From: Alphaproteobacteria bacterium
GTDB lineage: Bacteria; Pseudomonadota; Alphaproteobacteria; RF32; CAG-239
Reading direction: 5' to 3'
Length of the DNA stretch: 64,000 bases
Assembly: GCA_047975765.1 (NCBI GenBank)
Contig: JBKEEF010000003.1
Location: 3,923 to 67,922 of the forward strand
A model generated the notes under the pieces. It saw only the letters and a list, made by a program, of their open reading frames with translations. It searched no databases and was not told the origin of the DNA. This document shows positions 33,661-64,000 of the stretch, piece by piece. The position numbers and the translations under genes are program-made. Every line of letters starts with the position of its first letter. Positions within the stretch are counted from its first letter, which is position 1.

Positions 33661-34560
33661 ATGTTAACGTTGAAAAAAGAGATTTCAAGAACGACAGAGG
33701 ACATTGACGGAGATGACGTTCTTAATACAAAAAATGAATTAAGTAATATGGGATATTATAAAGCGGATGAAAAAGTTGGAATGAACAAATTTACTGATGA
33801 AGGTTTATTCAAAGGAATTAGTAGCTTTCAAAAAGACAACAAGCTTAAAGTTGATGAAGTTATGAAACCAGATGGAGAAACAGAAAGAAAAATTAACGAA
33901 CTTACTGCAAAATCAAGTTTTAGAAATGATTTTGAAAACAAAAAAGATAATTCTCACAAAAATCACCTTGAAAAAACATATAAAGCACAAAAAGAAGATG
34001 AGATGATAAAAAATTTAATTCCGGTAATTCATTCAAAAACACATGAAGATGTAAAATTATTTCCATATCTTGATACAAGAAATAATATTACAGTAGGTGG
34101 TGGTAAAAATGTTCAAAGCAGAAAAGAATTTGATAAAATAAAATGGGTAAATAAAGAAGGTGTAGGACATAGCCAAGAAGCTGCATTTAAAGAAAAAGAA
34201 AAACTTGAGAAGCTTATTGTAAAAGATAAAATGAATAATTTGCGTGCTGATCATTTTGAAAAAACTACAAATCTAAGAATGAAAAAAGAAGATTTAGAAA
34301 AAACAACGTACGAACATATAAAAGCTACTGTGCCCATCATAAAGAAAAAATTTCCAGAATTTGATACCTATCCAAAATCTACTCAAGAAGTGCTTATTGA
34401 TATGGAATATAACATGGGAGGTAGATTTAATAAGAGTTGGAAAAAATTCTTCAAAGCAATAGAAGCTAGAGATTTTGAACAAGCAGCAAAAGAATCTGAA
34501 AGAGGAGCTCTTTCTGCGGAAAGAAATAAATGGACTAGAGAAAAACTGTTAAACCATTAA
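33661..34560 (+). CDS. Lys-rich protein with PG_binding_1-like N-terminal domain and phage-lysozyme(GH24)-like C-terminal region
   Basis: LSNMGYYKADEKVG...FQKDNKLKVDEVMKPDGETE resembles a PG-binding domain; later EDEMIKNLIP...LDTRNNITVGGG and LIDMEYNMGGRF...AIEARDFEQAA resemble T4/lambda-type lysozyme blocks. Very AT-rich. Confidence 0.4.
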   Translation: MLTLKKEISRTTEDIDGDDVLNTKNELSNMGYYKADEKVGMNKFTDEGLFKGISSFQKDNKLKVDEVMKPDGETERKINELTAKSSFRNDFENKKDNSHKNHLEKTYKAQKEDEMIKNLIPVIHSKTHEDVKLFPYLDTRNNITVGGGKNVQSRKEFDKIKWVNKEGVGHSQEAAFKEKEKLEKLIVKDKMNNLRADHFEKTTNLRMKKEDLEKTTYEHIKATVPIIKKKFPEFDTYPKSTQEVLIDMEYNMGGRFNKSWKKFFKAIEARDFEQAAKESERGALSAERNKWTREKLLNH

Positions 34561-34567
34561 TTTTTTT

Positions 34568-34594
34568 AGGGGGAATCAAGCCATAACTCCCCCT
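34568..34594. terminator. Bidirectional terminator hairpin (T7-AGGGGGA...TCCCCCT-A6)
   Basis: Perfect 7-bp GC-rich stem flanked by T and A runs, between the lysozyme-like gene and the prophage left end. Confidence 0.6.
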
Positions 34595-34699
34595 AAAAAA
34601 TCTATTTTCCACTTAACAAGCCTTTCAGCTCATCAAATTGTTTCTTAGAAAAATCTGGATTACTGATGCTCTTGTTATTTCTCACTGGATATTCATCTC

Positions 34700-34890
34700 C
34701 CATAATATCTGTTGTGTTTTTAGGTGTGGGGAGGTGATCATTTTTAGACTTTAGAAGTTTTGATTATTTCTTTTAAGAGTGTTTATATTGTTAGGGTTGT
34801 GGAATTTTGGTGGCGATTTTTAAAATCGTCTTTTTTAGACTTTTTTGTATTTAAATGATAGTTTTGTGCGATTATTTTTAGACTCTTTTG
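34700..34890. mobile_element. Putative left end (attL-like) of the Mu-like prophage with three direct transposase-binding-like repeats
   Basis: Core TTTTTAGACT in direct orientation at 34741, 34832 and 34876, immediately 3' of the repressor gene; TGTTGTG at ~34710 is a candidate terminal TG. Confidence 0.45.
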
Positions 34891-34895
34891 AGTAT

Positions 34896-35594
34896 TTATT
34901 GTTTGCTTATGATCATTTTGAGTTTTCCAACAATGTTAAAATCCTCATCAAGAGAGAAACTCCAGCTTTCATATTCTGGGTTTATGGATTTTACCTTCAT
35001 TTCTTTGCCAATTCTTTGAAGTTGCTTAATATAACAATGCTTATCATAGTTAAAAGCATATATCCCATCATCTTCAAACTGGTCAACACTTCTGTCTATG
35101 ATGGCAATGTCGCCATTACTTAGCTTTGGCATCATAGAATCGCCTTTTATATATGCGCCAACGCAATGTGACGATAATTCAAAGGCTTCAACGAGTTCTT
35201 TTGATATGGTTATTGTGAATTGAATGTTTTCTTCATCTGCTAGCCAACCATTTCCGGCCGACAATGAAACGTCGTATATACTTATTTTTTGAGAACCTTT
35301 TCCAACTTTAACATTGTTTTTTATATATTTTTCACCTTTACCATAAACAAGCCAATCAAGATTGATGCCTTTATAATTAAGTAATTTTATTATTACATCT
35401 AATGTAGGGATATATTTTCCATTAAGATAATTTAAAAGAGTATCTTCAGACTTACCAGACACAATGGAAGCCTCTTTCCTATTTGAAAAATCATTATCCA
35501 ACACATCTCTTAGACGAGTTGAAACTTTTTCGTCGTAAGATTCAACTTTTTCTTTTTTTTCCATATCAAAAAACTTCCCTTGTTTTTCAAACAC
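34896..35594 (-). CDS. Phage repressor, HTH + S24 (LexA/cI-like) peptidase domain
   Basis: 232 aa; N-terminal HTH; C-terminal GDSMMP and KQL motifs of the S24 autopeptidase; divergent from ner. Confidence 0.75.
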   Translation of the reverse strand: MFEKQGKFFDMEKKEKVESYDEKVSTRLRDVLDNDFSNRKEASIVSGKSEDTLLNYLNGKYIPTLDVIIKLLNYKGINLDWLVYGKGEKYIKNNVKVGKGSQKISIYDVSLSAGNGWLADEENIQFTITISKELVEAFELSSHCVGAYIKGDSMMPKLSNGDIAIIDRSVDQFEDDGIYAFNYDKHCYIKQLQRIGKEMKVKSINPEYESWSFSLDEDFNIVGKLKMIISKQ

Positions 35595-35640
35595 TTAAAA
35601 CAAAATACGAGAAAAATAAAGATTCAACTAGAATTCTCTG

Positions 35641-35695
35641 TTGACACCCGACATTTCTCGGTGTAATGTTAGTTATAACGAAAGAGAAAACTAAC
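35641..35695 (+). promoter_or_regulatory. Early promoter (TTGACA-17-TAATGT) with inverted repeats (candidate operators)
   Basis: Promoter at 35641-35669 with imperfect IR CACCCGAcatttCTCGGTG in the spacer; second IR GTTAGTT-N14-AACTAAC at 35668-35695. Confidence 0.45.
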
Positions 35696-35755
35696 ACTTA
35701 ATAGTAATAAAAAACCAGCTGTAACTGGCGATTTATTTATAACAGAGGTTTTAAT

Positions 35756-36058
35756 ATGAATAAAAAGGATTTACATCCAGAATATATTAAGTATCTAGTA
35801 AGAAGCCAAGGAATGACCCTTGCGGCTCTTGCTAAAAAATACGGCTTCTCATCCTCTACAATTAAAACAGCTCTTAAAAAGCCAATGTTTTTTGGCGAAC
35901 AAATTATTGCGACGTTCTTGAATATTCATCCCATGAATTTGTGGCCTAGTAGATATGATGAAAAAGGAAACCCTTTACACCCACATGCCTCTGCTAATAA
36001 CCTTAAACCATTTTGCCCAAAAAATCAAGATGTTAAAAAAGGAGGTCAGAATGATTAA
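35756..36058 (+). CDS. ner: Ner-like DNA-binding protein (Mu Ner/Nlp family)
   Basis: DLHPEYIKYLVRSQGMTLAALAKKYGFSSSTIKTALKK...GEQIIATFLNIHPMNLWPSRY matches the Ner family signature. Confidence 0.75.
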   Translation: MNKKDLHPEYIKYLVRSQGMTLAALAKKYGFSSSTIKTALKKPMFFGEQIIATFLNIHPMNLWPSRYDEKGNPLHPHASANNLKPFCPKNQDVKKGGQND

Positions 36059-38141
36059 AAGATTTTATTCAATTCAAGAACTTCTAGAGCTTGGAATACC
36101 TAAGTTTCCAAAAACTCATTTTGGTATAATAAAAAAAGCAGAAAGAGAAAAATGGGTATTTCAAGAACGCAATAAATTGGGTGGCGGCCGAGAATATTCG
36201 TTAGATTCGCTTCCCGTTGAAGCTAAAGAATTTATTTTGAAAACTGAAATGGGAAACTCTCAAGAAGTTATAGAATATCAAAAGCAAGAATTGGCTAATC
36301 ACAGCAACGTTATTGATGTTAATGAACTCAAGCCTTATCAAAGAGAAGTTATTGATGCTAGAGCTATTATTTTAGCTGAAATTGATAGGTTGGCTCTTAT
36401 TTATGGTACGAACAAAGCTATTCAAAAATTTGTTGAACTTGTTTTTCAAGGTGATGTTCCTGAAGAAATAAAAAAAGCACTGGTCAAGGCTAATGCTAAA
36501 TCTGGCGGAAAACCTGTTAAAATTTCACGAGCAACAATTTTTAATTGGAAAAAAGCAATTAAAGAATCAGGAAGCATTGCGGGTCTTGCTCAAAAAGAAA
36601 TTAGAGAAGCAGACTGGCCAGCATGGGGTGATGCTTTGCTTAAATTGTGGCAAGTACCGGGCAAACCAAGCTTATCAACTGTCTTGGAAAATCTCGTTAA
36701 AATACTTCCTGTTTATATTGCTATTCCTAGTTACTCTGCAGCTCAAAGGTTTTTGAAAAAATTGCCGGCACAAGTCTTTAATAAAGGTCGTGTGGGTACT
36801 CGTGAGATGAAAAAATACAAGGCCTATGTTGCAAGAAGCACTGCAAATCTTTGGCCGACGGCAGTTTATACTGCGGATGGTCACACCTTTGATGCTGAGA
36901 TAGAAAACCCATTAACTGGAAAGCTTTTTAGACCAGAAATTACAACGGTTGTTGACGTATATACACGCAAGGTTGTTGGTTGGTCTCTTGATTTGAGTGA
37001 AAGAACAAATTCTGTATATATGGCTCTTACAAAATCAATCATTACTCATGGTATTCCTTGTATTTGGTATGTTGATAACGGAAAGGGTTTTAATAACCGT
37101 TATTTTGATGATGAGATGGTTGGCTTGTTGGCTCGTCTTAAAATTGAGAAAAAGAATTCAATCGCATATAACTCTCAAGCTCGTGGTATTGCTGAACGTA
37201 TCCACCAAACAATTTGGGTCAAAGCAGCAAAAAATTTAGCAACCTATATGGGGGCTGATATGGACACTCAAGCTAAGCAGGCTGTTTATAAAAAAACCAG
37301 AAAAGATATTAGCGAAAAAGGTCGTTCAGACTTGGTTATGAGTTGGGATAATTTTAAGGAATATTGTACAAAATGTGTTGAGATTTATAATAACACACCT
37401 CATAGATCACTGCCAGTGATTGTTGATCAGACTACCTATAAAAAACGTAATATGACACCTTCAGAGTTTTGGAACAAATCTGTTATGGATGGTTTTGAAG
37501 CTGAAAAATTGTCTCCTGCAGAAATCAAAGATCTGTATAGATACTATGAAGTTCGCAGAACAAATCGTGGGTTGGTTCAACTCTTTACAAATAGCTATTT
37601 TTCACTTGCTTTAGAACCTTATCATGGACGTGATGTTGCTGTTGCTTATGATATTCATGATGCTTCTAAAGTTTGGGTTCGTGAGCTTATGGAACTTGAT
37701 GGAGAGATGAAAGCAGGTAGACTTATTTGTGAAGCCATCTTTGAAGGCAACTCAAGAGAATATTTCCCAATTAGTAAGATTGAGTTTGAAAATCAAAAAC
37801 GTGCTGAGGGTCGTGTCAGAAGGCTTAAAGGTCACATGGAAGACGCACTAGATGAAACAAGAGCTAGATTCCTTGATCATCAAATTGATATTGAAGAAAT
37901 TACGACACCTAAAGAAGTTGAAAAACAAGAAAAACCACTTCTTGCAGAAAGCGACGAAAGACCGTTTTTTGCTGATGATGTGTCATGGGCTAAATGGCTT
38001 TTATCACATCCCGATAAAATTACAGATGGAGATGTTGAAAGCTTGATAGCTGCTTTGAAAAGCCCAGAAATGACAATGCTTTTTGAGGCAGAAGACATAA
38101 GCCTTTCTAATTTGAAAGAGCTTATAAAAAAAGCGGTCTAG
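36051..38141 (+). CDS. Mu A-like DDE transposase (start taken at MIKRFYSIQ, overlapping the ner stop)
   Basis: 696 aa; N-terminal winged-helix end-binding region (FYSIQELLELGIPKFPKTHFGIIKKAEREKW) and rve-like core (TADGHTFD...VGW); position after ner. Confidence 0.8.
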   Translation: MIKRFYSIQELLELGIPKFPKTHFGIIKKAEREKWVFQERNKLGGGREYSLDSLPVEAKEFILKTEMGNSQEVIEYQKQELANHSNVIDVNELKPYQREVIDARAIILAEIDRLALIYGTNKAIQKFVELVFQGDVPEEIKKALVKANAKSGGKPVKISRATIFNWKKAIKESGSIAGLAQKEIREADWPAWGDALLKLWQVPGKPSLSTVLENLVKILPVYIAIPSYSAAQRFLKKLPAQVFNKGRVGTREMKKYKAYVARSTANLWPTAVYTADGHTFDAEIENPLTGKLFRPEITTVVDVYTRKVVGWSLDLSERTNSVYMALTKSIITHGIPCIWYVDNGKGFNNRYFDDEMVGLLARLKIEKKNSIAYNSQARGIAERIHQTIWVKAAKNLATYMGADMDTQAKQAVYKKTRKDISEKGRSDLVMSWDNFKEYCTKCVEIYNNTPHRSLPVIVDQTTYKKRNMTPSEFWNKSVMDGFEAEKLSPAEIKDLYRYYEVRRTNRGLVQLFTNSYFSLALEPYHGRDVAVAYDIHDASKVWVRELMELDGEMKAGRLICEAIFEGNSREYFPISKIEFENQKRAEGRVRRLKGHMEDALDETRARFLDHQIDIEEITTPKEVEKQEKPLLAESDERPFFADDVSWAKWLLSHPDKITDGDVESLIAALKSPEMTMLFEAEDISLSNLKELIKKAV

Positions 38142-38200: not shown

Positions 38201-38959
38201 ATGAAAAACGAATTTGTAAAGACAGAAAATGTCAAAACCTTTTTAGAAGCTCTTACAAAGCTCTCTCTGAGAGGTGCTGGTGAAGCTTGTTTGATGGTTG
38301 TTGATGGACAACCAGGGTTAGGAAAAACTTGTGCCTTGAACTGGTGGGCAATCAGAAACGAATGTATTTATGTTAGAGCTAAAAAGGAATGGACACCAAA
38401 TTGGTTGATGAGAGATTTGTTAAATGCTCTTGGTGCAATTCCTGCGAACTCTTTTGAAAAAATGTTTCAGCAAACTCTACAACTTTTGGCTCAAAGATCC
38501 AGTGATGCTACGAGGGATGGAAAAGTTTTTGCTGTTATTATTGATGAGGTTGATTATATCTCTCGATCTTCAAAGATTTTGGAATCTTTAAGAGATCTGT
38601 CAGATTTCTTAGAAATTCCGTTTGTTTTTGTGGGTATGGGGGTTATTCGTCATAACCTTTCAAAATTTCCTCAGATTGCTAGTCGTATTGGTCAATATGT
38701 TGAATTTAAGCCATTGAGCTTAGAGGATACAAAAAACTTGATGAACACACTTTGCGATAAAAAGGTTGAAGAAAAGCTCATTGCCTTCACTCATAAAGTT
38801 ACTGCTGGTTATGTTAGAGAAATTAAAGAGGCTATTGCTTCAATTGATAGATTTTCAGCTCGTAATAGAAATATTGACACCGTTACTTTTGCTCAAATGG
38901 AAGGTCAAGTTTTGATGAACGACCGTAAGAATTCTAAACCTATCTTAGTTAGAGGGTAA
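38201..38959 (+). CDS. Mu B-like transposition ATPase (AAA+)
   Basis: 252 aa; Walker A GQPGLGKT, Walker B IIDEVD; directly after the transposase. Confidence 0.75.
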   Translation: MKNEFVKTENVKTFLEALTKLSLRGAGEACLMVVDGQPGLGKTCALNWWAIRNECIYVRAKKEWTPNWLMRDLLNALGAIPANSFEKMFQQTLQLLAQRSSDATRDGKVFAVIIDEVDYISRSSKILESLRDLSDFLEIPFVFVGMGVIRHNLSKFPQIASRIGQYVEFKPLSLEDTKNLMNTLCDKKVEEKLIAFTHKVTAGYVREIKEAIASIDRFSARNRNIDTVTFAQMEGQVLMNDRKNSKPILVRG

Positions 38960-38963
38960 ATAG

Positions 38964-39560
38964 ATGAATAATACGGCAAAGAATATTAATAAAGTTTTTG
39001 CTTTGGTTAGCGAACACCCTATCACACTTGATGAGTTGGATAGCAAAACTACTTTATCTCGTCATTGCATAATTATTGCGATGTCAAAACTTTGTAGCTC
39101 TGGATTTGCTGTGAGACTTGAAAACGGCATTTATAAACTATCAAAAAAAGGGAAAAGTCTAAAAACTAGCGAAGAAAAGAATAAAGCACTCTACTTCAAA
39201 ACGGGTTGCCCAGCAGGAACAAAAATCATTAATCGCGCTCGTGATAAAAATGGATTTAGGGATAGAATTTGGAAAATTGTTCGGTTGCAAAGAAAATTCA
39301 CAGTTAATGATGTCGTTGCAATGGTTTCTGAAGGAAATGAAAAAGACCCAAGAAGTAATGTTTATAAATATTTACAAGCTTTAATAAAAATTGGTTATGT
39401 TTTTGAATTGCCATGCAAGGCTAAAAATGACAGCAAGCTTACTTCAAATGGATTTAAAGTATTTTCCCTTGTTAAAGATACAGGACATATTGCCCCTATT
39501 CTAAAGCTTCGCCGAAAAGAAATGTATGATCCTAACACAGGGGAGACTCTGTCATGGTAA
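38964..39560 (+). CDS. Hypothetical early protein with two winged-helix-like segments
   Basis: 198 aa; position in the Mu semi-essential early region. Confidence 0.35.
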   Translation: MNNTAKNINKVFALVSEHPITLDELDSKTTLSRHCIIIAMSKLCSSGFAVRLENGIYKLSKKGKSLKTSEEKNKALYFKTGCPAGTKIINRARDKNGFRDRIWKIVRLQRKFTVNDVVAMVSEGNEKDPRSNVYKYLQALIKIGYVFELPCKAKNDSKLTSNGFKVFSLVKDTGHIAPILKLRRKEMYDPNTGETLSW

Positions 39561-45961: not shown

Positions 45962-46468
45962 ATGATGGCTTATGGTGTTAAACAAAAAAATGAGGTACGG
46001 AAGAATTATATTCATAAACTTCTACCGTTAACTCAAGCAGCAAAAATTGCTGGAGTACCAATTGCCACAGCCAGAAGGTGGAAAACACTTTCTTATGAGC
46101 AAGGGGATGACTGGGATAAACAAAAAGCAGCATCTTCATTAAGTTCAGGCAGCCGGGATGACTTAGTCAAGGTCTTGGTTAATGATTATGTCATTTTTCA
46201 TCAATCTGTTATGGAAAGTCTAAAAACTGCAGAAGCAATGACAGCTAAAGAAAAAGTTGATGCTTTAGCATCTCTTGCTGATGCTTTTTCAAAGACGATG
46301 AAATCTGCAGGACAAGCAAGCCCAGAGTTATCAAAACTTGCTGTTGCTAATGATATTATTCAGTTGCTTGGTGATTTTATCAAAAATAAATATCCTCAAC
46401 ATATTGTGGCTTTTTTAGAAATTATAGAACCTTTCGGTGAGGAGGTTGCTATTAACTATGGCAAATAA
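45962..46468 (+). CDS. Mu gp27-like terminase small subunit (DUF1804-like, HTH)
   Basis: LTQAAKIAGVPIATARRWK...GDDWDK N-terminal HTH typical of Mu-like small terminases; sits before the large terminase. Confidence 0.55.
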   Translation: MMAYGVKQKNEVRKNYIHKLLPLTQAAKIAGVPIATARRWKTLSYEQGDDWDKQKAASSLSSGSRDDLVKVLVNDYVIFHQSVMESLKTAEAMTAKEKVDALASLADAFSKTMKSAGQASPELSKLAVANDIIQLLGDFIKNKYPQHIVAFLEIIEPFGEEVAINYGK

Positions 46469-48163: not shown

Positions 48164-49591
48164 ATGACAAAGTCTAAAAACAATCGCAAAGAAATGAATA
48201 TTCAGCAAATAGTCAAAAAAGAGCTATCGCCATCCGCCGAATGGTATAAATCTCGGAGTTTTGGTGATGTTATTTATCCAGAAGATGATATTCTAAGGAA
48301 AAATGGATATCAAATGAAGATTTATAGAAGCCTTCTTTCTGATGAACAAATTAAAGCTTGCTTTAGTGGTCAGAGGGTTGCTGCTGTGGTTGCTGCCGAC
48401 TGGGAAATTATTCCAGCAAGTGATAGTTCTCTAGACAAAGAAATAGCTGAATTTGTTTCAAAAAACATTGAGCAATTGATGTTTGATGATAAAAGCAGAA
48501 AAATGCTCCATGCTAATTGGTTTGGGTATTCGGTCGCTGAGGTAATCTGGGGTTTAGATGATGATAAGATTATTATTAAAGACTTGAAAATTAGAAGACA
48601 GGAAAGATTTTGCTTTGGGGTGAATGGTGATTTATTTCTGAAGAAAAACCTCTTTGAAAAAGAAAGAATGCCAGACAAAAAGTTTTGGGTTCTTAAAGCC
48701 AGTGGCGATAATGATGATGATGTCTATGGGCTTGGTTTGGCAAATTCATGTTATTGGCCAGTATATCTAAAAAGAAATGGTTTGAAGTTTTGGTCTGTCT
48801 TGGTTGAAAAATTTGCTATTCCGACTGCAGTTGGAAAATATGTCCAAGGGGCTTCTGAAGAAGAAATTAAAGATTTGCTTCAAATGTTAGATGCGATTTC
48901 TTCAGAAACTTCAATTGCTGTTCCTGAAGGAACTGATGTTGACTTATTAGAGTCTATAAAGGCTTCTGGTGGTGATCACGAAAAATTCTGCAAATATCTT
49001 GACCAAATTATCGCAAAAGCAATTCTTGGACAAGATGGAACTTCAGAAAATGGAAGATATGCTGGAACTGCCGAAGTTCAGGAAAATGTTAAAGATTTGA
49101 TTGTCAAGTCAGATGCGGACTTGCTTTGTGAAAGTTTTGATGAAGTGATTAAATGGTTGGTTGCTTATAACTGGCCAGATGCAATCGCTCCAAAAATTGT
49201 GAGAAAATTTGAGCAAGTTGAAAATCTTAACACAAGTGTTGACCGGGATGTAAAAATTTCTAGTATGGGCTTTATGCCGACTGAAGAATATATCCAAGAG
49301 AAATATGGTGGTTCTTGGAAAAAATCTGAAGCAGGTTCTCCTTTATCCAATTTTTCGGAATCAGAAGATGAAGAGGAAAATAATGAAGATGTTTCTGATT
49401 GGGAAGAAATTGTTGATCCTATGCTTAAGCCTTTTGAAAAGCTTTTAGAAAATTGTAGTTCTTTTGAAGAACTGAGTTCCCGTCTTTTGGAAACGGTTAA
49501 TAGTATTGATACTACAAAGCTTGTTGATGAGTTGGCAAAGCAAAATTTTCTCGCTAGAGTTAAGGGGGTTTTAGGGGTTAAAGATGAATAA
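48164..49591 (+). CDS. Portal protein (Mu gp29-like, DUF935)
   Basis: 475 aa with an acidic C-terminus; between terminase and the Mu-F homolog. Confidence 0.65.
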   Translation: MTKSKNNRKEMNIQQIVKKELSPSAEWYKSRSFGDVIYPEDDILRKNGYQMKIYRSLLSDEQIKACFSGQRVAAVVAADWEIIPASDSSLDKEIAEFVSKNIEQLMFDDKSRKMLHANWFGYSVAEVIWGLDDDKIIIKDLKIRRQERFCFGVNGDLFLKKNLFEKERMPDKKFWVLKASGDNDDDVYGLGLANSCYWPVYLKRNGLKFWSVLVEKFAIPTAVGKYVQGASEEEIKDLLQMLDAISSETSIAVPEGTDVDLLESIKASGGDHEKFCKYLDQIIAKAILGQDGTSENGRYAGTAEVQENVKDLIVKSDADLLCESFDEVIKWLVAYNWPDAIAPKIVRKFEQVENLNTSVDRDVKISSMGFMPTEEYIQEKYGGSWKKSEAGSPLSNFSESEDEEENNEDVSDWEEIVDPMLKPFEKLLENCSSFEELSSRLLETVNSIDTTKLVDELAKQNFLARVKGVLGVKDE

Positions 49592-55019: not shown

Positions 55020-55605
55020 TCAAATTGAGCAGTCAATTTTAGACTTATTGAAAAGCTATAATACCGAAGAAAAGCTCGGATATAAGATTGATAAGATTGA
55101 CTCTTACAAAGGTGAATTGAAGAACTTCAAAGAATTAATAAGCAATTCATCAAGTGCAGTTTTACTTTCTTTCTATAAAAAAAAGCCAGTTGATAGATGG
55201 AATGTTGAAGCAACATATATTGCTCTTGTTTATTTCAGGGGGTTTACAAGAAACCAGAGAGATACACGGTTTGGTAAAGATGGCGGGGTTGGTGCTTATC
55301 AGATTTTATCGGACATAGAAATAATTTTAGAAGATGAAAGCTTAGGTTTTCTTGTTGAGCCAATTGAAATTGTTGAAACTAAAACCTTGCTACATGACAG
55401 TGTTTCAAACTTTCATACGGCACTTTATGAAATTGAGTTCACGTTAACCTACAAAAAGAATTTCTTCATTTCTTCAGAACAGAAAAAAGAATTGAAAAAA
55501 TTCAAAGAACTGTCGACGACTTGGGAGATTGGAGAAAATACCCAGTTTGAGACATTAGTTAAATTACCGCAAACAGAGAAGGAGAATTCAGATGGCGGAG
55601 AATAA
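55012..55605 (+). CDS. Hypothetical phage protein (Mu gp37-like position)
   Basis: 197 aa. Confidence 0.3.
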   Translation: MLSQIEQSILDLLKSYNTEEKLGYKIDKIDSYKGELKNFKELISNSSSAVLLSFYKKKPVDRWNVEATYIALVYFRGFTRNQRDTRFGKDGGVGAYQILSDIEIILEDESLGFLVEPIEIVETKTLLHDSVSNFHTALYEIEFTLTYKKNFFISSEQKKELKKFKELSTTWEIGENTQFETLVKLPQTEKENSDGGE

Positions 55606-61157: not shown

Positions 61158-62084
61158 ATGGAACTTAGTCTAAAAACGAACGGTTTTGAAATTTCGCTTG
61201 ATAACTTGATGTATTTTTCTTCAGTTGAGCATTTGGCCAGATTTTGCCAAATTCAATTTTTGAATAAAAATGCTGAAGATTTAAGCTTTCTTAAATCAAC
61301 ATTAAAAGACGATTTAACGGCAAGCTTGTTTTTAGATAGAAACAAGGTTTTTTCGGGCTTGGTAAAAGTTTCTTCTGATTTTGTCGGTCAAAAACCTTTA
61401 ATTTATCTTCAGGTTATCTCGCCGATTTATAAATATTGTGGCAAACAAATTGGTCAAGGCAAGCACTATATTGACCAAAAAGCGAGCGAGATTATCAAAG
61501 CACTTTGCCCAGACATTGAGCTTGAAATTGAAAAAGATGTTCAACTGAAGGATTTTATTTCGTTCTCTTCGGAATCTGTTGACCAGATAATTGCAAGACT
61601 GGCAGTTCAATCAAACCTTTTGATTTATTCTTCTGCTGAAGGAAGTCTAAAATTGACCGAGTACAAATATTCTTCAAGAGCTGTTGGGGTTTTGGAAGAA
61701 AACATTCTCACAATTGGCGCCATTGAAAAAGACGAAGAAGGCTTGGAGATTATAGGCCAGAACTGTCTGGATGATAGTTTGAGCTTAGATGAAATTATCA
61801 AACCTCGTTTGACCATTGCTGGCAAAAATAAGAGATGCCTCGTTGTTGATGATGTTTCTCCATCAACTTTGAATAAGCTTTATCGCAACAAAAAAGAAAT
61901 CCCTCTCAAAATCAAAGATTGGTTTGACCATGAAGGTGATTTGCTCGAAATAAATGAGATTGTTAGAGTCGTTCGTCCGTGGATTGGGGTTGATGAAAAC
62001 TGCTTAATTCAAAGTTTGAGCTTAAATCTTTCTGGCAGAGGTTCTTTTTCTGCAGATCTAGTCGTGGAGGCAAAAAATGTTTAA
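61158..62084 (+). CDS. Tail/baseplate protein (Mu P-like)
   Basis: 308 aa. Confidence 0.5.
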   Translation: MELSLKTNGFEISLDNLMYFSSVEHLARFCQIQFLNKNAEDLSFLKSTLKDDLTASLFLDRNKVFSGLVKVSSDFVGQKPLIYLQVISPIYKYCGKQIGQGKHYIDQKASEIIKALCPDIELEIEKDVQLKDFISFSSESVDQIIARLAVQSNLLIYSSAEGSLKLTEYKYSSRAVGVLEENILTIGAIEKDEEGLEIIGQNCLDDSLSLDEIIKPRLTIAGKNKRCLVVDDVSPSTLNKLYRNKKEIPLKIKDWFDHEGDLLEINEIVRVVRPWIGVDENCLIQSLSLNLSGRGSFSADLVVEAKNV

Positions 62085-63103: not shown

Positions 63104-64000
63104 TGGCTTTTGTAGTAGATGACTTAAAAACTTTAATCACAAATATTGAGCTTGCTTATGAAAACAAGATGAAAGATAAGATGCCGATTGCTGAACAAAA
63201 AGTCAATGCGCGTATCTTGGCGAATGCTTGTAATGCACTCAATCATTTCATTGCTTATAATGCTCAGCAGATCTTGCCAACAACGGCCGACTATGAACAT
63301 TTAGTTGAGCATTGTGCTGCTAAAGGCATTTATCCAAAGCGAAAAACAAAAGCGAGCGGTCGTTATAAGGTAAAAGGCACAGTTGGTGCGACGGTGCTTG
63401 TTGGCCAAGTTCTGAATCGTAAAAAAGACAATTTAGAATATATCGTTGATAGTTCAGTGATTTTGTCAGCTGAAGAGCAAGAAATTCAAATAACTTGTAA
63501 AACTGCGGGTGTGATTGGAAATTGCACGGCTGGTGAAAAAATGAGCTTTGCTCAAGCCATTGCGGGTGTCGAAACTGAAGGTGAAGTTGTGTCATTTGGT
63601 GCTGGCGCTGATGATGAAAGTCCAGAGGAATTATTAGCTAGATATCTTCAGGTTGTGCAAAATCCTGACAATGGGGGAAATCCACAAGACTATGTTCGTT
63701 GGGCTTTGCAGGTTGAAGGTGTTTCTAAAGCTTGGGCATATCCCCACGAAGCTGGCACAGGTAGTATAGTAATTAGAATTTGGACACCATCTGGACCAGC
63801 TGATGCCGAACTAAGGGAAAAAGTAAAAGAATATATTAAAACCGTTTGTCCAGCAGATGTTAAAAGAATTGTTGTCTTAACTCTAATTCAAGAATCTGTT
63901 GATGTTGTCGCAACGATTGTTCCTAACACACCAGAAGTTCATGAAGCTGCCGAAGGCGAATTAAAATCATTGTTCTTGCGTAAAATTGAACCAGGAATGA
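63103..64000 (+). CDS. Baseplate J-like protein (gp47), N-terminal ~299 aa; runs off the window
   Basis: TAATG overlap start; translation MAFVVDDLKTL... stays open to the window edge; resembles the Baseplate_J family. Not in the ORF track because it is truncated. Confidence 0.55.
   Translation, partial: MAFVVDDLKTLITNIELAYENKMKDKMPIAEQKVNARILANACNALNHFIAYNAQQILPTTADYEHLVEHCAAKGIYPKRKTKASGRYKVKGTVGATVLVGQVLNRKKDNLEYIVDSSVILSAEEQEIQITCKTAGVIGNCTAGEKMSFAQAIAGVETEGEVVSFGAGADDESPEELLARYLQVVQNPDNGGNPQDYVRWALQVEGVSKAWAYPHEAGTGSIVIRIWTPSGPADAELREKVKEYIKTVCPADVKRIVVLTLIQESVDVVATIVPNTPEVHEAAEGELKSLFLRKIEPGM

Follow-up and report, generated by a model that had tools for sequence, protein, structure and literature searches.

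Gene content at the prophage left end

The 64,000-nt stretch analyzed here (the window) contains the left ~29 kb of a Mu-like prophage, the right end of which lies beyond base 64000. The last host gene before the prophage (33661-34560, + strand) encodes a 299-aa protein with a weak Pfam match to a peptidoglycan-binding domain and is followed by a perfect 13-bp hairpin terminator at 34562-34600. Nearest the left end inside the prophage is a gene for a CI/LexA-type repressor with helix-turn-helix and peptidase S24 domains (34896-35594, - strand; Pfam PF00717, 3e-20, and HTH_3/HTH_19), which was called as 222 aa on a matching Logan contig and is transcribed towards the left end. On the + strand follow a Ner-like early regulator with an HTH_35 domain (35756-36058; PF13693, 1.4e-22), a 696-aa MuA-type DDE transposase (36051-38141; Pfam Mu-transpos_C, HTH_Tnp_Mu_1, rve and DDE_2) and a MuB-like AAA+ target-DNA activator (38201-38959; Pfam AAA_22 and TniB). 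DUF3164, GemA and Mor proteins were also found with Pfam. Farther rightward, genes for a Mu-type portal, Mu F, sheath, tube, tape-measure and baseplate continue up to the window edge.

The Mu portal, Mu F and Mu tail assignments came from gene calls of the matching contig, SRR30067233_2159, which starts inside the last host gene and spans window-equivalent positions 33669-69627. The prophage is apparently an intact Mu-like transposable element. Over their region of overlap, the window and the Logan assembly of run SRR30067233 differ at just two bases, 63591 and 63595, both in a baseplate J-like gene.

Although the repressor is CI/LexA-like, the N-terminal domain of the transposase is still of the Mu I-alpha type (PF02316, matching 1tns). 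In Mu, a domain of the I-alpha type is common to MuA and the c repressor and binds the operator/enhancer. The intergenic region between the repressor gene and ner (35595-35755) contains a sigma-70-like promoter and GTTATAAC-type repeats.

Three direct repeats between the prophage end and the repressor gene

Three + strand copies of the 10-mer TTTTTAGACT take up the DNA that separates the prophage end from the stop codon of the repressor gene, which is read leftward. We designate them L1 (34741-34750, at nt 17-26 from the prophage end; extended site ~34734-34754), L2 (34832-34841; extended site ~34825-34845) and L3 (34875-34884; extended site ~34868-34888). Their start-to-start spacing is 91 and then 43 nt. 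An initial annotation of this DNA had already noted three copies in the same orientation and gave the first two correctly, at 34741 and 34832; the third begins at 34875 and not at 34876. It also placed the repeats immediately 3' of the repressor gene, and they are indeed found there, with the third repeat ending at 34884 and the stop codon at 34896-34898. The flanks that it described as shared are so only in part: the upstream sequences are GATCA, ATCGTCT and GCGATTA and fit a weak half-site, C(G/A)nT(T/C)n, and the downstream sequences are T-rich (TTAG, TTTTTT and CTTTT).

Exact TTTTTAGACT occurs seven times in the window, counting both strands, against 0.73 copies expected from dinucleotide shuffles; none of 100 dinucleotide-preserving shuffles of the window gave seven. 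All seven copies are inside the prophage, to the right of 34725. With one mismatch allowed, enrichment was weak (27 copies vs 16.7 expected), so it is the exact word that carries the signal. A rough estimate from the shuffle rate puts the chance of three same-strand copies within 144 nt at ~5e-7. Scored with a weight matrix built from the terminal sites of relatives only, L1, L2 and L3 reached 20.6, 20.5 and 24.1 bits, respectively, L3 being the best fit to the extended consensus CGnTTnTTTTTAGACTyTTT. A matrix that included the window's own sites found no match of at least 16 bits in the 34.7 kb of host DNA in the window.

We considered the repeats as operators and rejected this assignment, as the motif is absent from the repressor-ner intergenic region (35595-35755). 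No Rfam family reached its gathering score around the repeats. A terminator-like hairpin on the + strand, GGCGATTTTTAAAATCGTC (34812-34830), abuts the T-run of L2; it may block host read-through into the prophage, and was not conserved in the relatives examined.

Left ends of related phages

A transposase alignment scanned against IMG/VR yielded eight related loci, representing six distinct insertions, with MuA 53-66% identical. Seven of the eight had + strand TTTTTAGACT-type sites ~1305 and ~1220 nt upstream of the MuA start; L007 starts too near MuA to show left-end sites. A third site was present ~1180 nt upstream of MuA in five of these seven loci; in L005 and L006 the variant TTTTTGGACT takes its place. 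No match was returned by a single-protein scan of GTDB genomes with MuA. The comparison set comprised ten left ends, namely the six IMG/VR insertions and four from GTDB genomes with four further flanks, the latter all from uncultured gut Alphaproteobacteria or Rickettsiales metagenome-assembled genomes (MAGs).

The L1 core was at nt 17-26 from the terminal T in 10/10 related left ends, as in the window. L2 starts at nt 108 in the window and at nt 98-111 in the relatives (an L1-to-L2 distance of ~81-94 nt in the latter), and L3 at nt 151 and nt 140-154, respectively, with an L2-to-L3 step of 43 nt in the window and 42-43 nt in the relatives. The L2 core of L008 and L009 is a one-base variant. 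Our pattern flagged an L2-type site in three of the four GTDB left ends; the core in the other, L267, has a further mismatch. One additional locus (L019) fits the left-end pattern without L2 or L3 and looks like a chance match.

The number of repeats, their orientation and their distance from the end are therefore conserved in ten relatives, and the sequence between the repeats diverges. This comparison bears on the simplest alternative, that an AT-rich word recurred by chance in a low-GC intergenic stretch. The region is T-rich with ~30% GC and the one-mismatch enrichment is modest, both of which would suit such an origin, but neither the excess of exact copies over the shuffles nor, decisively, the conserved number, spacing and orientation amid diverged intervening sequence agrees with it. 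We regard chance recurrence as refuted, its remaining probability being negligible.

The same ten insertions locate the prophage terminus. Their sequence is common from TGT(G/A)GGG inward and the flanks outside are unrelated; the ten different left flanks, like the 22 right flanks described below, indicate insertion at many unrelated target sites, by transposition rather than site-specific integration. The start of this common homology puts the window junction at 34724|34725, which fixes the prophage boundary to the base. The left terminus reads 5'-TGTGGGGAGGTGATCA (34725-34740, + strand), with the terminal TG at 34725-34726. The five host bases that precede the start of homology, TTAGG (34720-34724), are the predicted left copy of a 5-bp target-site duplication and the only copy visible in the window. 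A junction at about 34.70-34.72 kb had been proposed earlier, with the terminal TG tentatively placed in a degenerate repeat copy, TGTTGTGTTTTTAGG, at 34710. The actual junction is just to the right of that range, and TGTTGTGTTTTTAGG (34710-34724) is host flank and does not hold the terminus. The misplacement arose because part of this flank, TGTGTTTTTAGG (34713-34724), looks like the site core (TTTTTAG), a resemblance that is probably coincidental.

Right ends and target duplication

The right end of a related phage was found on L140, the right part of a 39-kb IMG/VR contig that also carries L010. It ends ...AGTCTAGAAA-N10-AGTCTAAAAA-N12-AGTCCAAAAT-N14-CA, with cores at nt 17-26 (R1), 39-48 (R2) and 59-68 (R3) from the terminal CA and a fourth copy at nt 128-137. 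In the relatives, R1 mirrors the position of L1, the R sites are inverted relative to the L sites, and the steps are 22 nt from R1 to R2 and ~20 nt from R2 to R3. A second phage, whose ends lie on separate contigs from a single metagenome (L008/L153), has the same right-end architecture as L140. A pattern of R2, 12 nt, R1, 14 nt and CA recovered 28 loci in a metagenome scan, all of them genuine ends of this phage family. Together with L140 and L153 this gave 30 right-end loci with six terminal variants and 22 distinct flanks, which diverge immediately after the CA. The initial annotation had proposed to look for an inverted version of the motif at the other prophage end and would have taken its absence as a refutation; none of the 30 related right-end loci (22 flanks) lacked it.

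Several other searches were less productive. Beyond TGT the terminal 16-mers of the two ends are not alike, and for this reason the left terminus, when mirrored, recovers left ends only. A single-protein scan of IMG/VR with gp47 gave one weak (38%) partial match, a loose scan of IMG/VR for two motif copies was overwhelmed by unrelated matches, and five right-end proteins concatenated as one protein query gave no match. Exact-protein look-ups for all complete genes from 58152 onward, and for gp48 and a 77-aa protein, gave no record either. The L009 contig stops 3 bp after the methylase gene and L143 260 bp after gp48, so that neither reaches the right end. In L144 and L145, with a gp48 49% identical, the motif was absent downstream of the Dam methylase gene, the place expected for a right end; the phage carrying these loci was treated as another lineage.

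The recovered pairs of ends are bordered by a 5-bp target duplication, CAGAA in L010/L140 and GATTG in L008/L153. In L254 the same phage occupies a position 10 nt from the L010/L140 insertion point in that host locus, and its flank reads through this point. Joining the L010 left flank to the L140 right flank and removing one CAGAA reproduces the L254 sequence at 200/200 nt. For L010/L140, alignment to the uninterrupted locus therefore confirmed the exact ends and the 5-bp duplication, by the route that had been proposed at the outset for defining the junction. We infer that the window prophage's own right end resembles those of its relatives and would carry inverted AGTCTAAAA-type sites 16 nt before a terminal CA.

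L140 and L254, and likewise L153, L257 and L267, come from different samples and are independent insertions that share a host locus and lie a few tens of nt apart. Such clustering suggests that transposition continues in gut alphaproteobacterial populations, or that targets are preferred locally.

Site structure and the transposase

Alignment of 25 terminal sites defined an invariant core, TTTT(A/G)GAC(T), and the weaker half-site C(G/A)nT(T/C)n, which lies six or seven nt from the core towards the terminus. As in Mu, therefore, each site has two parts and spans ~20 bp. The transposase is collinear with MuA of Mu and 24% identical to it over residues 16-352, and its family profile matches both 1tns (I-alpha) and 4fcy (the Mu transpososome, covering I-gamma and the catalytic part). 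For I-beta of the end-binding domain, neither the alignment nor the family profile detected sequence likeness to that of Mu. An unrecognizable I-beta fits the differing sequence of the DNA site.

The reading of the repeats as transposase-binding att sites, put forward in the initial annotation, is supported by the Mu-like genes, by the conserved triplet and by the inverted copies at the right ends of relatives. On this comparative sequence evidence, the repeats are most probably (roughly 0.88) the L1-L3 transposase-binding sites of attL of a Mu-like transposable prophage. That MuA is the protein that binds them, and the role of each site, are inferred by analogy with Mu (PMC3145075). One MuA monomer would occupy each site through its I-beta/I-gamma domain. 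With the L1 core 16 nt inside the terminus, the catalytic domain would be placed on the terminal TG/CA, and cleavage at the terminal CA-3' would fall to the L1 and R1 monomers. L2 and L3, 91 and 43 nt further in, and the three inverted right-end sites would help transpososome assembly, and strand transfer into staggered target positions would then give the 5-bp duplication.

Recovery of the ends provides an end-recognition sequence for a Mu-like phage family of uncultured gut Alphaproteobacteria. This sequence aids prophage annotation and could serve in mini-transposons for hosts without genetic tools.

Comparison with Mu and other transposable phages

We re-derived the sites of Mu from the Mu genome, in which L1, L2 and L3 lie at 5-27, 110-132 and 150-172 from the left end and R1, R2 and R3 (inverted) at 5-27, 27-49 and 56-78 from the right end. 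The window phage family resembles Mu in its TG...CA termini, three sites per end and end-specific spacing and, in two relatives, a 5-bp target duplication (PMC3145075). L1 adjoins the terminus in both. The L1-L2 gap is long (105 nt in Mu, 81-94 nt here) and the L2-L3 gap short (40 nt in Mu, 42-43 nt here), and the R1-R2 step measures 22 nt both in Mu and in the relatives of the window phage. The gene order is also alike, in that the repressor gene points to the left end and ner, A and B come next (PMC3145075), and the location of the repeats between the end and the repressor stop codon is where L1-L3 lie in Mu. The differences are in the parts themselves. The Mu site, ...CGAAA(A), is unrelated to TTTTTAGACT, and the sites described here do not match the Mu 22-bp consensus (...TTTCAnnnnAAnnCGAAA). 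R3 is direct in the relatives of the window phage whereas it is inverted in Mu, and the repressor is of the CI/LexA type with an S24 peptidase in place of the c type of Mu.

We found no DNA similarity to any phage record. By transposase, the nearest isolated phages, at 34-38% identity, were the D3112/B3-like Pseudomonas phages, RcapMu and the Rhizobium phage RR1-B. In D3112-like phages the termini are 5'-TGT, and three putative 22-bp sites (L1-L3) have been described 10, 93 and 124 bp from the left end (PMC4378225). The extended sites in the window, at ~10, 101 and 144, are close to these positions, but unlike D3112/B3-like phages the window phage has Mu-type contractile-tail genes. Left-end direct repeats that are inverted at the right end have also been put forward, from sequence, as putative sites in FluMu, Pnm1, Sp18, BcepMu and KS10, with six putative sites reported for FluMu, Pnm1 and Sp18 (PMC2628397). 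The FluMu-type prophages belong to another host clade and have another site sequence than the phages from uncultured gut Alphaproteobacteria and Rickettsiales MAGs, and their ends were derived from one prophage, whereas the ends described here were fixed by many independent insertions and an uninterrupted site. Left-end sites of this kind are textbook Mu biology in a new lineage and are expected for such phages.

Internal copies of the site

What is unexpected is that equally strong copies of the site occur inside the prophage at conserved positions, mostly in the right-end orientation. The window prophage has five internal matches of 17.8-24.2 bits, as strong as the terminal sites, ~4.4, 13.4, 20.3, 26.4 and 26.9 kb from the left end. 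The leftmost (39152-39172, - strand; 18.3 bits) is in a 198-aa gene after MuB, ~4.43 kb from the left end. The strongest (48167-48187, -; 24.2 bits) covers codons 3-6 of the portal gene, and a third (55029-55049, +; 22.6 bits), with the core ATTTTAGACT, is in the left-end orientation. Codons 4-7 of a gp44-like baseplate gene contain the fourth (61163-61183, -; 21.1 bits), and a weaker copy (61640-61660, -; 17.8 bits) is in that gene as well. There is also an exact 10-mer with poor flanks at 46217-46226 (-). Mu differs in this respect: it has no internal match above 14 bits, and its real sites score 16.7-29 bits.

Internal copies were found in the window phage and in the relatives L003, L005, L008, L009, L010 and L140. 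A site 4.43-4.46 kb from the left end was present in 6/6 phages, the copy at the start of the portal gene in four (window, L008, L009 and L010), and a copy just before a terminator at ~9.0-9.65 kb in three. At the ~4.4-kb site, all ten columns of the 10-mer were invariant among six phages vs 16 of 90 flank columns, and neighboring codons change synonymously. A protein-coding cause was rejected for the internal copies, which are in different reading frames and in intergenic DNA; these positions imply selection on DNA or RNA and not on protein. The right-end orientation was seen in ~21 of 23 internal matches, which occupy homologous positions and so are not independent counts, and we estimate that base composition alone would give about a twofold orientation bias. 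Inspected by eye, the sites at 39156, 48171 and 61167 have no CA at cleavage distance and so are not pseudo-ends.

The orientation of the internal copies raises the question of whether the repeats act in RNA, as a processing, stability or termination signal that reads AGUCUAAAAA in the sense transcript. Nearly all copies do have the same orientation relative to local transcription and would fall in the repressor 3'UTR, internal mRNAs and the late-operon 3'UTR, and the terminator-like hairpin at 34812-34830 abuts L2. The strong copy at 55029, however, is oppositely oriented, and a fixed 16-nt distance from DNA termini has no RNA rationale. Given in addition that the hairpin is not conserved in the relatives and that there was no Rfam match, a role in RNA is very improbable.

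Since the internal copies match the terminal sites in strength, the motif may be recognized by, or also serve, another factor. Taken to its full extent, this would make the repeats the target of some other phage protein, such as a regulator, a nucleoid-organizing protein or a packaging protein, with the true transposase sites elsewhere in the termini. The strength and positional conservation of the internal copies, in a phage type for which Mu sets no precedent of such sites, is what speaks for it. It is at odds with the architecture of the ends, where the L1 and R1 cores are equidistant (nt 17-26) from the cleaved TG/CA in inverted orientation and R1, R2 and R3 follow a period of 20-22 nt as do R1 and R2 of Mu, and no further motif common to both termini stood out in the terminal sequences inspected. 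The individual versions fare no better: a pac site that recurs internally and faces the other way at the right end would be self-defeating, and for a regulator the operators are in the repressor-ner intergenic region and have a different sequence. We therefore consider a different binding protein unlikely, somewhat less so than a role in RNA, and retain the transposase as the predicted ligand of the terminal sites.

Whether the transposase would also bind the internal copies is a more doubtful matter. Some of them are conserved in nucleotide sequence, and we consider it less likely than not that they are functional transposase-binding sites kept by selection. Mu shields its interior by a separate 'genome immunity' mechanism (PMC2837660). 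Our favored reading of the internal copies is that they would spread classical MuA-dependent target immunity along the ~34-kb genome; they could instead tune transpososome assembly or organize the prophage into a domain. If the favored reading is true, the copies may give a sequence-encoded route to self-immunity, by which the replicating phage would avoid transposing into itself.

A conserved leader upstream of the last gene

The last gene of these phages encodes a DNA methylase, which is of the C5 type in the window phage, where the gene starts at window-equivalent 67562, and of the Dam type in relatives; all start with MRTES. Upstream of it we observed a conserved leader of ~125 nt, located at 20124-20270 of L138 (window-equivalent ~67432-67578) and at 14191-14337 of L140, and present in L153, L144, L154, L155 and L157 as well. 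The leader matched no Rfam family. In its predicted structure, CUUCCUACUC pairs with the ribosome-binding region, and the 5' hairpin shows compensatory changes. As modeled, the arrangement is reminiscent of com/mom-style translational control, with one methylase module exchanged for another downstream of it.
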